From: an archaeon
GTDB lineage: Archaea > B1Sed10-29 > JAJSAI01
Assembly: GCA_024274695.1 (NCBI GenBank)
Contig: JAJSAI010000002.1
Location: 1 to 18,297 of the forward strand
Direction: 5' to 3'
DNA length: 18,297 nucleotides
Below are positions 10,969 to 14,575 of the stretch, one piece after another. The notes under the pieces were generated by a model. The model was not told where the DNA came from. It made no database searches and saw nothing but the letters and a program-made list of their open reading frames with translations. Made by a program: the position numbers and the translations under genes. Every line of letters begins with the position of its first letter. Position 1 is the stretch's first letter.

Positions 10969-11652
10969 CTAGGTGTTCTTGGCTATTCTTGACTTTATTT
11001 CTTTTATCGGGAGTACTGTTGTTGCTATTGGTACTCCTTCTATCTCAGAGATCCTGATTGCTAAGGGATCCACCTTGGGAATATTGTGCAGTACTACCAT
11101 GCTCGGTTTTAGTTTGGTTACTCTGATGGCCACCATCGGGCTTCTTCCCATGCTCACGTTAGTGAATATTAACGCCCTCTCTGTCGTGGACCCGTATATC
11201 TTCACGAACTCGTCGGCAGGAAGCTCGAGAATAGCGCGCAGGGAGTCCACGAATGTTACTCCGAATATTGTGCTGTTCTTCAGTTTTCTTTTGTTCGTCA
11301 CGATCTTGCACTCTATTGATTCGGCAAATTCTAGTCCTGGCATAGGCTTTTTGAACTCCACGACCTCGTATATGTCCTTCTTCTGCTCAGGAGGCGCCAG
11401 GTTTTTGAGGGTCCACCCTCCTCTTTTCCTGTCTATTTCGCACAGCGCTTCTATGAACCTTCTTATGAGCCTGATTCCAGGGCTTTTTCTTCTGTTTGAC
11501 TCGTAGTCAGAAATCGTGCTTGGGGTTACCTTCATCTGCTCTGCGAGCTCTGTTTGGGTTACCCCGAACATTTCCCTCCATTTTTTCAAGCTCGCTCCGG
11601 GATTGTCGGAAAGGGTTATTTCTCCCGCGATCCTCTGGATTATCTCTTCCAT
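10969..11652 (-). CDS. XRE-HTH transcriptional regulator, conserved archaeal family (COG1709-like) with a DRTGG-like C-terminal domain
   Basis: IAGEITLSDNPG-x-SLKKWRE-x-FG-x-TQTELA...ISDYESNRRKSPG and RALIFTNVSMGRSPMVAIRV. Confidence 0.9.
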   Translation of the reverse strand: MEEIIQRIAGEITLSDNPGASLKKWREMFGVTQTELAEQMKVTPSTISDYESNRRKSPGIRLIRRFIEALCEIDRKRGGWTLKNLAPPEQKKDIYEVVEFKKPMPGLEFAESIECKIVTNKRKLKNSTIFGVTFVDSLRAILELPADEFVKIYGSTTERALIFTNVSMGRSPMVAIRVTKLKPSMVVLHNIPKVDPLAIRISEIEGVPIATTVLPIKEIKSRIAKNT

Positions 11653-11660
11653 GCTCTTAG

Positions 11661-11690
11661 ATTAACGTGACGGGTTTAAATAATTAACGT
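11661..11690. promoter_or_regulatory. Potentially bidirectional TATA box flanked by ATTAACGT direct repeats
   Basis: ATTAACGT at 11661-11668 and 11683-11690 around TTTAAATA (11675-11682). Confidence 0.55.
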
Positions 11691-11701
11691 ATACCTTGTT
11701 T

Positions 11702-11798
11702 GGGGTGTTAGCCTTCACATAATCAGCGGGTAAAAAAGTGTGGTGGAGAGGAGGCTCACCCAAGAGGCCAGGAGTAGAAGCGTTCGGCTCCTCTCCGT
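11702..11798 (+). ncRNA. Candidate structured RNA, copy A (strand uncertain)
   Basis: 5' hairpin GGGGT-GTTA-GCCTT. An 11-bp stem (11743-11753/11788-11798, two G-U pairs on +) encloses motifs shared with copy B. Confidence 0.45.
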
Positions 11799-12002
11799 GG
11801 AGAATACGGCAGTATATACATGCCAGTTAATATTTATATGCTTTCCGTTAGAACATTAACGAAACGACGTTTGCCGAATGACGTAGAAAGTGCTTTTCTC
11901 GTGCGCAGAAGAGAGATTTTGTTGAGGTTCTAACAAATTATACTGCTTAGGTTAGCATTCTGAACGATCATTCTTTTATATTACTATAGTGTTTAGAAGT
12001 TC

Positions 12003-12141
12003 GGAGGTGATAGGAGCGCCTCTAAATAGGTCGGCTGTCTGATGAAGAGGTGGGGGGATGAGGCTCACCCGGCCAAGAGGGCTTTGTTCGGCGTCCCACC
12101 CCCTCTGATCCAAACCCCTATTTTAAACGTCTCTATTTTTT
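12003..12141 (+). ncRNA. Candidate structured RNA, copy B
   Basis: TTTTATAT at 11974; hairpin GAGGTG/CGCCTC; stem AAATAGG/CCTATTT; 13-of-15-bp stem 12046-12060/12092-12106; T6 at 12136-12141. Confidence 0.5.
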
Positions 12142-12160
12142 GTGCACGGGAGAAATTGAG

Positions 12161-12166
12161 AAAAAA
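12161..12166 (-). terminator. Oligo-T terminator candidate after the PRC-barrel genes
   Basis: T6 on the minus strand in a pyrimidine-rich tract about 16 nt after the stop at 12183. Confidence 0.4.
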
Positions 12167-12182
12167 GGAGGTATTCCAGCGC

Positions 12183-12425
12183 TCAGGCTGGGAAGTCTAC
12201 CAGAACGTACTTCCCGAACGCCCGCACGTCCCTGTAAGGGATCTCGAGAAGTTTATCCTTTGTGAGCCTCTGCTGTATTTCAGGGGTCATCTTAAGGGGC
12301 TTTACGAGGACGCTGGTGATTGTCCCTCCTTCTTCAAAGTACGCGTCCACGAGCACTCCTAGTTCTGTGCCGCTCGTGGTAACGACCTTGCGTCCGTTTA
12401 TTTTTGAGCCTAGCACTGTTGCCAT
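12183..12425 (-). CDS. PRC-barrel domain protein (CdpB-like)
   Basis: GRKVVTTSGTELGVLVD...IPYRDVRAFGKYVLV; SD GGAGG upstream. Confidence 0.85.
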   Translation of the reverse strand: MATVLGSKINGRKVVTTSGTELGVLVDAYFEEGGTITSVLVKPLKMTPEIQQRLTKDKLLEIPYRDVRAFGKYVLVDFPA

Positions 12426-12439
12426 GATTCTAAACCTCC

Positions 12440-12679
12440 TCAGGACCTTATGATGATTATGTCTCCTGTGGCTATCACTTTATCGAAGGGGATTATGTTC
12501 TTCTTCAGGAACTCTTTAGCCTTGGCAGTATCCCTTCCCAGGATTGAGGACAGGTCTGCCTTTACCAAGAACTTTATCTTCCCTTCCTGGGGTTCGATTA
12601 TGACGTCTCTCGCAACTCCCACGTATTCGCTATTCTCCGTGTAAATCCGTTTCCCGTACAGTTCGGTCATCCGGTTCAT
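12440..12679 (-). CDS. PRC-barrel domain protein (CdpB-like)
   Basis: LYGKRIYTENSEYVGVARDVII...IPFDKVIATGDIIII; SD GGAGG upstream. Confidence 0.87.
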   Translation of the reverse strand: MNRMTELYGKRIYTENSEYVGVARDVIIEPQEGKIKFLVKADLSSILGRDTAKAKEFLKKNIIPFDKVIATGDIIIIRS

Positions 12680-13643: not shown

Positions 13644-13991
13644 TCACTTTTTGAGCTTCTTGAGGGCTTCTTCTATTTTCTCCTGCAGGCTCTTGGCGTT
13701 GTTCTTGAGCCTTTCTTCCTGTTTCTTGAGGGTATCGAGTTTCAGCTTGTTGTTCTCCTTTTTCTCCTCCAGTTCTTTTTCAACAGCTTCTTTGTTTTTT
13801 TCTATTATTATTCCCCCGATGTTCTTGTATACCTTGCCCTTGCATTCCTTCAGCTCTGCTAGGGCCTGTTCGATCAGCATGTTCTCCATTTCCAGCTGCT
13901 GCTCTTGGGCGACTATCATCTGCAGTTGCCTTTGTATGGCCTGCAACCTCAAAAGGTCTTCTTGAACTTCTTTCGGGAGTTCTGCCGGCAT
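13644..13991 (-). CDS. pfdB: Prefoldin beta subunit
   Basis: Coiled coils flanking the VYKNIGGIII hairpin; canonical position in the operon. Confidence 0.95.
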   Translation of the reverse strand: MPAELPKEVQEDLLRLQAIQRQLQMIVAQEQQLEMENMLIEQALAELKECKGKVYKNIGGIIIEKNKEAVEKELEEKKENNKLKLDTLKKQEERLKNNAKSLQEKIEEALKKLKK

Positions 13992-13994
13992 TCT

Positions 13995-14447
13995 TTAAGC
14001 ACCTCCAAATTTGATCATGAGAATTCTTTCCCCGTACTGGGAGAAAGACCATACCGTCTTGCCAGCATCCACTATTGTGTCAGGTTCTTGGTCTTCCAGT
14101 TCCTCTATCCCGAATAGTTGGATGAACTCCTCGCTTTTTTCTCCCCTGACATGGATGCTCTTGCTGGGTTTTTTGGTCCCAACGAGATTGTATCCCTTGA
14201 ACCTGATGATTTCTGACCACTCTGGCTCTGGCACGGTGTTGAGGAACATTAGTCTTCCAGGGTTCCCGTGGTATTCCCCTACTATGCAAACTCTAGGGTA
14301 ACCCTTCTTGTGGGCTATGCTGGCGAGGGTTTCTATGTTTGCCTTTCCTCTGGTGATGTACTCCGAGAAGGGTATGAGCCTTGAGAGTGTTCTGGCGAAT
14401 CTTCTCGTGGTCTGGGAAGGTTTCCTGCTTGTTGTGAAGAGGATCAT
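13995..14447 (-). CDS. Brix/Imp4 domain ribosome biogenesis protein
   Basis: True start at ATG 14447: MILFTTSRKPSQTTRRF...RGK...EYHGNPG. Confidence 0.88.
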   Translation of the reverse strand: MILFTTSRKPSQTTRRFARTLSRLIPFSEYITRGKANIETLASIAHKKGYPRVCIVGEYHGNPGRLMFLNTVPEPEWSEIIRFKGYNLVGTKKPSKSIHVRGEKSEEFIQLFGIEELEDQEPDTIVDAGKTVWSFSQYGERILMIKFGGA

Positions 14448-14449
14448 GT

Positions 14450-14575
14450 TCAATCTGTCTTGATTTTTTTCACTATGGGTGGTTTTTCTTTTTCGAGTAT
14501 CCTGTACCCGCAGTACGGGCATTTTACGGTGCTTATGTCTTCAACTTCTCTTCCGCACTTAAGACATTTCCACAC
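14450..14575 (-). CDS. rpoP: DNA-directed RNA polymerase subunit P (Rpo12)
   Basis: Below the ORF-track cutoff. GTG start, 41 aa MWKCLKCGREVEDISTVKCPYCGYRILEKEKPPIVKKIKTD; zinc ribbon, canonical position after rpl37ae. Confidence 0.93.
   Translation of the reverse strand: MWKCLKCGREVEDISTVKCPYCGYRILEKEKPPIVKKIKTD

Follow-up and report, generated by a model that had tools for sequence, protein, structure and literature searches.

Whether the two similar elements in a single intergenic gap of an archaeal genome encode functional RNAs, and of which kind, is the question raised by this locus. The window, that is, the whole stretch of 18,297 nucleotides that was analysed, belongs to the genome named G000 here, with G001 being a genome of the same genus, and its 530-nt gap at 11653-12182 holds what we predict to be two related + strand genes for small structured non-coding RNAs, type A and type B. 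It is very probable that A and B represent a genuine conserved family of structured sRNAs. On balance, we also favour the fuller reading, namely that they are two independently transcribed + strand sRNA genes of a lineage-specific, undescribed family acting via a C-rich loop; that this loop acts in trans by pairing with G-rich ribosome-binding sites is a tentative proposal, which we regard as possible.

Motifs of the gap

The original prediction described repeated motifs, a common upstream layout and a closing stem for each copy, and all of these are present in the window: GAGGCTCACCC at 11751 and 12060, CCAAGAGG at 11760 and 12073, GTTCGGC at 11782 and 12086, A/T boxes at 11676-11684 and 11974-11981 followed by hairpins starting at 11702 (GGGGTGTTAG) and 12004 (GAGGTGATAG), and the stems 11745-11753/11788-11796 and 12046-12060/12092-12106. 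The within-window statistics for this repetition are modest, given that the 11-mer has exactly two occurrences within the window and, with up to one mismatch, three matches against 0.44 expected, a number attained by 3 of 200 shuffles; folding energies of the single sequences do not improve on those of shuffles either (z from -1.08 to +0.34). Both CCAAGAGG and GTTCGGC are short enough for chance recurrence. GTTCGGC is absent from the homologues, and all that is retained of CCAAGAGG, solely in type B, is CCAA and GG(G) with two variable bases in between; these two had been taken for family motifs and turn out to be mostly specific to G000. The evidential weight lies in the relatives with a retained core AGGCTCACCCRGCCAA, rather than in the statistics of the window. 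A comparison of the 530-nt gap with the rest of G000 gave no match other than itself. The heptamer ATTAACG has three occurrences near the elements, at 11661, 11684 and 11855.

Distribution and synteny

In a search of 151 archaeal genomes, the covariance model R2 found type B in 18 of the 31 genomes of the phylum and in none of the 120 outside it. Type A was located with a gapped pattern, which replaced a two-sequence model (R3) too weak to recover the copies of G000, G001 and G015; the pattern matches once in each of 16 phylum genomes, all within the window's order (16 of its 18 genomes), with no match for the reversed control. Altogether, 25 of the 31 phylum genomes carry type A or type B, and the six with neither have a completeness of 61-98%. 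The exact core 14-mer GCTCACCCRGCCAA occurs in 14 of the 31 (0-3 times per genome), versus one match with the reversed control. Among 185,579 species genomes, the 21-mer core of type B has 18 stretches, with the 11 archaeal ones scoring 48-78 bits with R2 and the seven bacterial ones 21-26 bits.

Conservation in syntenic regions, a check named beforehand, proved to be strong. The same-genus genome G001 carries both elements in synteny, and type A adjoins a pair of PRC-barrel genes in 16/16 loci and an HTH gene in 14/16; in other families and orders, type B lies beside unrelated genes, such as SMC or an intron-bearing tRNA gene. The many scattered copies of a repeat family were not found, the elements being present in 1-3 copies per genome, with one of each type in G000 and a minimal third copy of the hairpin in G006.

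In the window, the gene divergent from type A is an XRE-type HTH_3 gene on the minus strand (10969-11652; Pfam HTH_3, E 6.1e-11), which is a core gene of the phylum, found in 28 of the 31 genomes at 51-81% identity. On the other side, two minus-strand genes (12183-12425 and 12440-12679) are convergent with the RNA genes; they had been labelled CdpB-like, a label that was checked to the level of the PRC-barrel Pfam domain (E 3.1e-10 and 9.3e-10).

The predicted type A gene

The type A RNA is predicted to extend over ~11702-11815 of the + strand, its ends having been set at the G-run ~26 nt after the A/T box and just past a small 3' hairpin. It would start ~50 bp from the start of the conserved XRE-type HTH gene on the opposite strand. 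The A/T box TTTAAATAA (11676-11684) lies between the ATG of this gene (11652, minus strand) and type A, and it is followed by TTAACG, conserved across the window's order, with TTTAAATAATTAACG being retained in this region of G000, G001, G006, G002 and G009. Where type A is not adjacent, TTAACG or TTATCG remains with the HTH gene, and no type A-like element was seen by eye upstream of it in G003, G020, G018 and G005. The box is probably a divergent promoter shared by the HTH_3 gene and type A, bidirectional use being suggested by its distances of 24-28 nt from the ATG and 22-26 nt from 11702, and the HTH_3 protein might possibly regulate type A.

The closing helix P1 of type A is a perfect 9-nt inverted repeat on the + strand, with GGAGAGGAG at 11745-11753 pairing with CTCCTCTCC at 11788-11796. 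Its core GGAGAGG...CCTCTCC is present in all seven type A copies located via the core alone; in those from the gapped-pattern search, P1 conservation is built into the pattern itself. Inside P1, the hairpin P2 (11753-11769, + strand) has GGCU/GGCC around the loop CACCCAAGA and, judged against the other type A copies, is an enlarged version, specific to the genus, of the family hairpin GGCU-CACCC-RGCC. The small 3' hairpin follows at 11795-11809 on the same strand (CCGU-GGAGAAU-ACGG), and at this site other genomes have different sequences that could pair likewise, such as CCAA/UUGG in G011 and CGA/UCG in G006. Type A also has a third hairpin, AGAAGA/UCUUCU, and lacks the GGG partner seen in type B.

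The predicted type B gene

The type B RNA is predicted to be a + strand transcript of ~120 nt (~12003-12124), running from GGAGGUGAU to the first T-run; R2 scores 63.1 bits at 12046-12106 of the window. Its strong TATA box TTTTATAT is at 11974-11981 (+ strand), and 18 of 19 type B loci have an A/T box, at least 7 nt long, that begins 27-32 nt upstream of a G-rich start, in most cases GGAGGUG. In the window, this start forms the 5' strand of the hairpin P0 (12003-12023, + strand; GGAGGUG, loop AUAGGAG, CGCCUCU) and matches the Shine-Dalgarno sequence perfectly; 15 of the 19 type B homologues are predicted to carry a 5' hairpin with another sequence.

The P1 strands of type B, AGAGGUGGGGGGAUG (12046-12060) and CGUCCCACCCCCUCU (12092-12106), both on the + strand, show covariation, with AGAGGTGGGGGGATG at the former position pairing with CGTCCCACCCCCTCT at the latter. 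They enclose P2 at 12062-12074 (+ strand), made of GGCU (12062-12065), the loop CACCC (12066-12070) and GGCC (12071-12074). This hairpin is found in 14/14 type B sequences, its fourth pair being U-G in seven and U-A in seven, and sequence comparison marks it as the family's nearly invariant centre. The adjoining AAGAGGG (12075-12081, + strand) has AA and GGG invariant in type B, and this GGG could pair with CCC 12068-12070 as a compact H-type pseudoknot, a pairing often selected by unconstrained folds and beyond the reach of covariation, given that its two sides never vary.

The tail of type B is C/U-rich, with a T-run at its end. The T-runs of the window (TTTT at 12121-12124 and TTTTTT at 12136-12141, + strand) are likely archaeal terminators of type B, since oligo-T is the known termination signal of archaeal RNA polymerase, and in most type B homologues T-runs are found 10-30 nt past P1. 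Coding potential of this region was rejected: a 106-aa ORF at 12042-12362 has no Pfam match, the G001 sequence is interrupted by an in-frame TGA shortly past the corresponding ATG, and the frames used differ in other genomes, so that behind the Shine-Dalgarno-like 5' end of type B there is no conserved small ORF.

Common fold, covariation and strand

Both types share a module in which the long closing helix P1 surrounds the short hairpin P2 with its loop CUCACCC. P1 has 9-17 bp, with a purine-rich 5' strand and a pyrimidine-rich 3' strand, and P2 is GGCY/RGCC, with a nearly invariant loop C(U/C)CACCC, although the invariance of CACCC is partly an ascertainment effect, given that the pattern searches and models required it; R2 nevertheless recovered one loop variant, CGCCC in G025. 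RNAalifold on a plain MAFFT alignment detected P2 only, with the P1 strands out of register, and this was fixed with covariance models.

P1 differs in sequence among genomes yet remains paired. In the model alignment of 16 sequences, 95.3% of cells are paired, versus 79.2% in shuffled alignments and 41-59% with the partners slid, and both sides have changed in 13 of 17 pairs, with the observed score matched by none of 500 shuffles. In an alignment-free test, cognate P1 strands paired at -22.5 kcal/mol versus -16.2 for swapped ones, the cognate partner was the best one in 10 of 19 cases, and none of 5000 permutations equalled the cognate strands. The original prediction of a functional RNA with maintained stems is supported by this P1 covariation and by the conservation in syntenic regions of relatives. 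Its divergent stems are borne out for P1 of type B, while the closing stem of type A is conserved in sequence (GGAGAGG/CCUCUCC), and instead of two equal copies there are two distinct subfamilies, each conserved separately. The claim that the wobble pairs assign the structure to the + strand holds as well: read on the opposite strand, the model alignment's 24 G-U cells would become C-A mismatches.

Proposed function and its alternatives

At the sequence level, type B shows the hallmarks of trans-encoded sRNAs, namely promoter and terminator signals together with compensatory change. We tentatively suggest that A and B would function in trans by means of their exposed C-rich loop, joined in many type B copies by a CACC(C) tail, with the loop pairing with GGGUGA-type ribosome-binding sites of mRNAs and translation thus being modulated. 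In sequence, the loop is similar to the UCACC portion of the anti-Shine-Dalgarno end of 16S rRNA, whose 3' end in G000 reads GAUCACCUCCU, and the most frequent 5-mers preceding starts include GGAGG and GGTGA. In a scan of 930 crude start regions, 57 paired with the loop at -14 kcal/mol or below versus 35 in the reversed control, and 22 versus 12 did so at -16 or below, an excess that is not specific, since any UCACC-like oligomer would give the same in a genome using Shine-Dalgarno sequences; no specific candidate and no conserved target emerged from these 930 regions. Pairing with 23S rRNA was also considered and rejected, given that the perfect 10-nt complement CGGGTGAGCC at C7:8858 is not conserved in G011, G027, G008 and others that keep the core; many core 10-mers have several complements in the genome. 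Moreover, without opening of P2 a 5-nt loop closed by a 4-bp stem makes a short seed, and the invariant GGC/GCC stem of P2 fits protein recognition no worse than it does pairing through a free seed.

Protein recognition is, in fact, the alternative that survives best, although we find it rather unlikely. Under it, A and B would be protein-binding RNAs, either scaffolds of a small RNP or decoys, in which a lineage-specific or conserved RNA-binding protein would recognise the invariant hairpin GGCY-CACCC-RGCC-AA, with P1 merely holding the hairpin in place and two or three RNAs per genome sharing the site. Three of the four P2 pairs are invariant in 16 sequences (GGC/GCC) while P1 varies freely, as is typical of protein-read sites; furthermore, the same hairpin recurs in three RNA contexts (type A, type B and the minimal third copy of G006), and a second CACC(C) stands in the single-stranded tail of many type B copies. 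However, no partner protein is indicated, the neighbours vary by order (HTH_3 and PRC-barrel versus SMC and the intron-bearing tRNA), and G008 and G010 have lost or replaced the 5' half of P2 while retaining CUCACCC, which argues for sequence over hairpin shape.

A more elaborate version of the pairing idea, which we judge improbable, would make type B a ribosome-targeting riboregulator and type A its regulated paralogue. The 5' end of type B in G000, GGAGGUGAU, is a perfect 9-nt complement of the 3' end of 16S rRNA, and by our reading 13 of the 19 type B homologues have a Shine-Dalgarno complementarity of at least 6 nt at or near the predicted start. The loop CUCACCC and a tail of the CACCCUCUCC type would then imitate the anti-Shine-Dalgarno; a closed form would pair the Shine-Dalgarno-like end internally, and the RNA would switch to an open form docking on 30S subunits or titrating mRNA ribosome-binding sites, thereby setting the cell-wide translation capacity of these reduced-genome archaea, with type A being driven from the promoter region of the core HTH regulator.

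The cis-RNA option of the original prediction, in which a riboswitch, leader or antisense element would control the HTH or PRC-barrel gene, has little left in its favour and is largely refuted by gene orientation. The strict synteny of type A with the PRC-barrel pair and the HTH gene would suit it, as would the compact pseudoknot of small-aptamer size that the type B core could form. Nevertheless, the G-U pairs assign the RNAs to the + strand, with the next genes on the minus strand and convergent in 16/16 type A loci; the T-runs would terminate the RNAs ahead of the PRC-barrel stop codon; the type B structure is kept in families with quite different neighbours; the HTH gene retains its promoter even at loci lacking an adjacent type A; and no riboswitch family matches.

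Still less probable, and refuted for the classes tested, is that A and B are strongly diverged C/D-box, H/ACA, tRNA-like, SRP, RNase P or 5S RNAs. That the original prediction did not recognise a tRNA, SRP RNA, RNase P, a CRISPR repeat or a known riboswitch agrees with Rfam 15 (4227 models), which gave no match in the window at gathering cut-offs, only noise on 11600-12250 (mir-1249, E 1.2; Xanthine riboswitch, E 9.2), and nothing with E up to 1 at the A or B sites of 18 related loci, where its matches, all off these sites, were nearby tRNAs, one weak sR14 and one weak tmRNA. ARAGORN found no tRNA gene in the window, and in the relatives the Rfam tRNA model matches only separate neighbouring genes. 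Both the length of ~120 nt and the possession of a separate promoter would be compatible with 5S rRNA, but the 5S rRNA of G000 is located elsewhere (C25:13278-13394, 86.9 bits), as are its SRP RNA (C7:37719-37993, 130.7 bits), RNase P RNA (C7:13434-13703, 148.8 bits), 16S and 23S, all above the Rfam cut-offs. Type B of G000 does have UGAUGA (12040-12045) and CUGA (12105-12108) flanking P1, like C and D boxes; however, the C box occurs in only two of the 19 type B copies (G000 and G006), C'/D' boxes are not evident in type B, and the conserved stretch of type B does not abut the D box as in C/D-box sRNAs. The D-box test covered only the bases after P1, and the CUGA spanning the P1 end in G000 and G006 was thereby missed. 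As to H/ACA RNAs, an ACA within 4 nt past P1 is found in two of the 19 type B copies; with only 1-2 nt on its 5' side, the internal loop provides no pseudouridylation pocket.

Finally, the elements might act as DNA, for example as a MITE/REP mobile repeat, as operator sites or as part of a replication origin. That the AT-rich gap contains two related elements rich in GC, with ATTAACG three times nearby, might speak for this. The reading has a negligible probability and is refuted by the copy number (each type once in G000, 1-3 copies per genome, in syntenic positions) and by strand-specific compensatory change, with pairing maintained via G-U pairs workable only in the RNA of one strand, and the two elements of the window are, besides, direct rather than inverted copies.

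Significance

To our knowledge, small-genome and probably symbiotic archaea have so far yielded very few structured non-coding RNAs apart from the universal ones. The A/B family, as judged from sequence, is absent from RNA databases and retained across one lineage of such archaea, the phylum having genomes of 0.3-1.3 Mb. Retention in 25 of 31 genomes, each with two or three paralogues, in fixed gene neighbourhoods and with a 13-nt centre that hardly varies, suggests an important role, given that these genomes have shed most regulators. The family gives Rfam-type annotation a new model, and experimenters gain a defined candidate pair of ~115-120 nt with predicted promoter, ends, helices and loop, in which the Shine-Dalgarno/anti-Shine-Dalgarno look of some parts offers a testable link to archaeal translation control.

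Comparison with known systems

A text search of the literature with the core 14-mers gave no match, and the titles and abstract openings of the literature on DPANN, archaeal small RNA and structured RNA mention no such family. One resemblance within the ribosome itself concerns the 3' strand of 16S helix 11 in G000, GGCTCACCAAGCC, in which 13 of 15 bases equal the family core GGCTCACCCAGCCAA. There, however, its pairing partner is GGUGAG, located a few nucleotides upstream, so that no GGC/GCC hairpin is formed, and mimicry of helix 11 was rejected since in G027, G019 and G008 the U/C state of 16S disagrees with the sRNA; the likeness is treated as chance or unexplained.

Among RNAs of other systems, several share single features with A and B. 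The protein-sequestering sRNAs of the CsrB/RsmZ type also repeat a short motif, which in our family stands in the loop, the tail and several paralogous RNAs, but A and B have only one or two motif copies per RNA and no CsrA-like partner is indicated. The preQ1-I riboswitch is a small H-type pseudoknot aptamer, and the type B core GGCY-CA-CCC-RGCC-AANN-GGG could form a pseudoknot of ~21 nt with an A-rich third loop; type B, however, lies outside any 5' UTR, its downstream genes being convergent, and has no Rfam match, while type A is devoid of the GGG. Bacterial sRNAs of the RsaE/RoxS type carry C-rich seeds in hairpin loops, resembling the C-rich loop motifs proposed in A and B to bind Shine-Dalgarno-like G-rich sites, although these RNAs belong to another domain of life and the likeness would be an analogy of mechanism without homology. 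Also comparable are archaeal trans-encoded regulatory sRNAs that pair with ribosome-binding sites, such as sRNA41 and sRNA162 of Methanosarcina mazei. A and B differ from this type in the clamp helix around an invariant mini-hairpin, in having two or three paralogues per genome and in the absence of an Rfam family at their sites, while resembling it as free-standing, structured and lineage-conserved genes of ~100-130 nt with their own predicted promoter and a conserved unpaired C-rich stretch able to pair with G-rich Shine-Dalgarno regions.

A Lineage-Specific Small-RNA Family with Two Subfamilies

The gap at 11653-12182 carries two predicted plus-strand small-RNA genes, type A (11702-11815) and type B (12003-12124), which belong to a genuine family of small RNAs, conserved and structured, that comprises two paralogous subfamilies, is specific to a single lineage of small-genome archaea and has no entry in Rfam. 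The original prediction of two paralogous structured RNAs of a new family is upheld by their conservation, by covariation in the long closing helix P1, and by the absence from Rfam. From the window alone, the case for an RNA pair is only suggestive: every motif noted was found in its place and both closing stems are real, the 11-mer GAGGCTCACCC occurs exactly twice (11751 and 12060), and its 3 matches with one mismatch allowed, against 0.44 expected, are reached by 3 of 200 shuffles, while single-sequence folding energies are no better than those of shuffles.

Within its own genome the gap sequence matches only itself. In the relative of the same genus (G001) both elements recur at the same site and in unchanged order, and more distant genomes have only a short core in common, with the exact 14-mer GCTCACCCRGCCAA present in 14 of the 31 phylum genomes at 1-3 copies per genome (one match for the reversed control). 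Side-by-side reading of the copies made the two subfamilies evident. Type B has a long P1 of variable sequence around the invariant centre AGGCUCACCCRGCCAA-NN-GGG, which includes the short hairpin P2 with its C-rich loop; 3' of this centre come a variable 9-14 nt linker and a tail rich in C and U. Type A has the same hairpin inside a P1 of GGAGAGG(A)/(U)CCUCUCC, together with two further hairpins, the third being built on AGAAGA/UCUUCU and the other a small one on the 3' side. A third, minimal copy with P1 and P2 only lies in G006 (contig C15, L013:1487-1527) and reads GGGAGGGGUAA-C-GGCUCACCCAGCC-AAU-UUACCCUUCUU; its neighbours on either side are genes for an anaerobic ribonucleotide reductase and a LigT-like 2'-5' RNA ligase. 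A near-pure purine tract (GGGG, GAGAG, and GGAAA runs) was also seen roughly 90 nt 5' of type A in two loci of one family (L102 and L104, in G014 and G017).

Covariation and Strand

Sixteen copies were aligned with the covariance model R1, whose seed was three sequences. Paired cells amount to 95.3%, vs. 79.2% in shuffles and 41-59% with partners slid by 1-3 columns, and 13 of the 17 pairs, all of them in P1, show changes on both sides; the covariation score is reached by none of 500 shuffles. In P2, three pairs are invariant and the fourth is U-A in 8 copies and U-G in 8. Given that this alignment was fitted to the model, an alignment-free pairing test was added on fixed windows, 20 nt 5' and 26 nt 3' of the core, in 19 type B copies: the mean pairing energy is -22.5 kcal/mol for cognate windows and -16.2 kcal/mol for swapped ones, 10 of the 19 pair best with their cognate partner, and none of 5000 permutations does as well, bearing in mind that the genomes compared are related and not independent, so that all these shuffle counts overstate significance. 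The proposal of a conserved structure with changing stem sequence is borne out for the P1 of type B. The alignment also contains 24 G-U cells that would become C-A mismatches on the other strand, which places the RNA on the plus strand, in agreement with the wobble argument made originally.

The invariant GGG of type B could pair with the loop CCC in a small pseudoknot, a pairing often chosen by unconstrained folds; neither side ever varies among the copies, and hence covariation gives no signal either way.

Distribution

The refined type B model, R2, finds type B in 18 of the 31 phylum genomes, including families with the loop CCCACCC and one genome (G025) with CCGCCC. These are its only matches in 151 genomes, with none in the 120 archaeal genomes outside the phylum. 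The type A pattern GGAGAGG-N(0-30)-YCACCS-N(20-50)-CCTCTCC matches 16 genomes, once in each, all 16 being from the window's order (18 genomes here), and has no match in the reversed control; the invariance of CACCC, and likewise that of the type A P1 in pattern-found copies, is partly built into these searches. The type A match in G005 coincides in locus with a type B match and seems intermediate between A and B. At least one of the two types occurs in 25 of the 31 genomes, the six others being 61-98% complete. Across 185,579 species genomes, the 21-mer core of type B occurs in 18 stretches; R2 scores are 48-78 bits for the 11 archaeal stretches and 21-26 bits for the 7 bacterial ones, which are chance matches.

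Genomic Context and Predicted Transcription

The window is contig C28 of an 825 kb genome (32 contigs, 91% completeness). On the left the gap is bordered by an HTH_3 gene (10969-11652, minus strand) and on the right by two PRC-barrel genes (12183-12425 and 12440-12679, both minus), with a DHH/DHHA1 gene after them. Genes in relatives were called as crude ORFs. The tblastn search places the PRC-barrel pair downstream and convergent in 16/16 type A loci and the HTH_3 gene upstream and divergent in 14/16. The HTH_3 protein (227 aa) is a core gene product of the phylum, found in 28 of the 31 genomes at 51-81% identity; neither Pfam nor NCBIfam gave a match to its approximately 150 C-terminal residues. 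Just past the DHH gene lie a prefoldin beta subunit gene (13644-13991, minus) and a gene (13995-14522, minus) whose protein weakly matches NCBIfam models of rRNA maturation and ribosome biogenesis, below curated cut-offs.

The presumed type A start is about 50 bp from the HTH start, across one A/T box, and the two are, we infer, transcribed divergently from one promoter region that they share. The TATA-TTAACG promoter stays with the HTH gene even where type A is not adjacent, and it therefore belongs first to that gene. TTAACG beside this TATA box is conserved across the order, and the gap holds three copies of the heptamer ATTAACG (11661-11667, 11684-11690, and 11855-11861); it could be a promoter BRE or an operator of the HTH protein. 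The AT-rich stretch between the two types holds an 18-nt inverted repeat (11847-11864/11917-11934, 83% complementary, arms 52 nt apart), at whose position G006 and G002 have an AsnC-type gene.

No neighbour is common to all type B loci; in other families, type B adjoins an SMC gene (frequently), a winged-helix gene, or an AsnC-type gene. In five of these loci, type B is closely followed on the same strand by a tRNA gene (L024:1314-1405, L023:1233-1374, L022:1001-1162, L021:1043-1191, and L045:1916-2072), probably intron-bearing because the Rfam match spans 91-162 nt; that of L024 is a tRNA-Arg (CCU) according to ARAGORN. In default mode, ARAGORN gave only 32 tRNA lines for the whole 825 kb genome of the window, where further tRNAs may be hidden by long introns, as in these relatives.

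The transcripts of both types and their ends are predictions from sequence signals. An A/T box of 7 nt or more, containing TATA or TTTA, begins 27-32 nt ahead of a G-rich start in 18/19 type B loci, this start being 31-59 nt before P1. T-runs come within about 10-30 nt after P1. The start is GGAGGUG in ten copies and GGAGGU in one more, and that of this genome, GGAGGUGAU, is perfectly complementary to the 16S 3' end GAUCACCUCCU. A 5' hairpin made by the first bases is present in 15 of 19 full-length folds and differs in sequence between genomes (for example GAGGUG/CGCCUC, GGAGA/UCUCC, GGUGAU/AUCACC).

Possible Function

Our first choice, a tentative one, is a trans-acting RNA that would pair with G-rich ribosome-binding sites. 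We favour it because the family's central loop, C(U/C)CACCC, persists in type A of G008 and G010 despite loss or replacement of the 5' half of P2; because UCACC is common to this loop and the 16S anti-Shine-Dalgarno end; because GGAGG and GGUGA sites lie upstream of this genome's genes; and because start regions show a modest excess of pairing with the loop, 57 at -14 kcal/mol or lower vs. 35 for the reversed control. Nearly as likely in our view, and likewise tentative, is that P2 is a recognition site for a protein, which its never-varying stem would fit about as well. A possible link of the family to translation initiation is testable.

Comparison with Known RNA Classes

Several other readings were discarded. 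A mimic of 16S helix 11 has 13/15 bases alike and no co-variation with the small RNA; the perfect 10-nt complement to 23S rRNA is not conserved; a C box and an ACA box are each present in only 2/19 type B copies, against C/D-box and H/ACA RNAs; and an ORF over type B has no Pfam match and is not conserved in G001. In this genome the C/D-like boxes are UGAUGA (12040-12045) and CUGA (12105-12108), which flank the type B P1 much as the two boxes of a K-turn would. The cis-regulatory option of the original prediction fails on gene orientation, the downstream genes being convergent. A scattered MITE/REP-like repeat is dismissed by the low copy number and the syntenic positions.

No earlier description of the family was found in the literature searched: the core 14-mers as text returned no paper, and keyword searches of titles and abstract openings nothing relevant. 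At gathering cut-offs the window has no match in Rfam 15, the gap yields only noise when E values up to 10 are allowed, and a permissive Rfam scan of 18 related loci gave nothing at the homologous sites. ARAGORN found no tRNA in the window, and the genome's own SRP and RNase P RNAs, together with its 16S, 23S, and 5S rRNAs, all lie elsewhere above cut-offs, which sets both types apart from tRNA, SRP, and RNase P RNAs, in line with the original reading.
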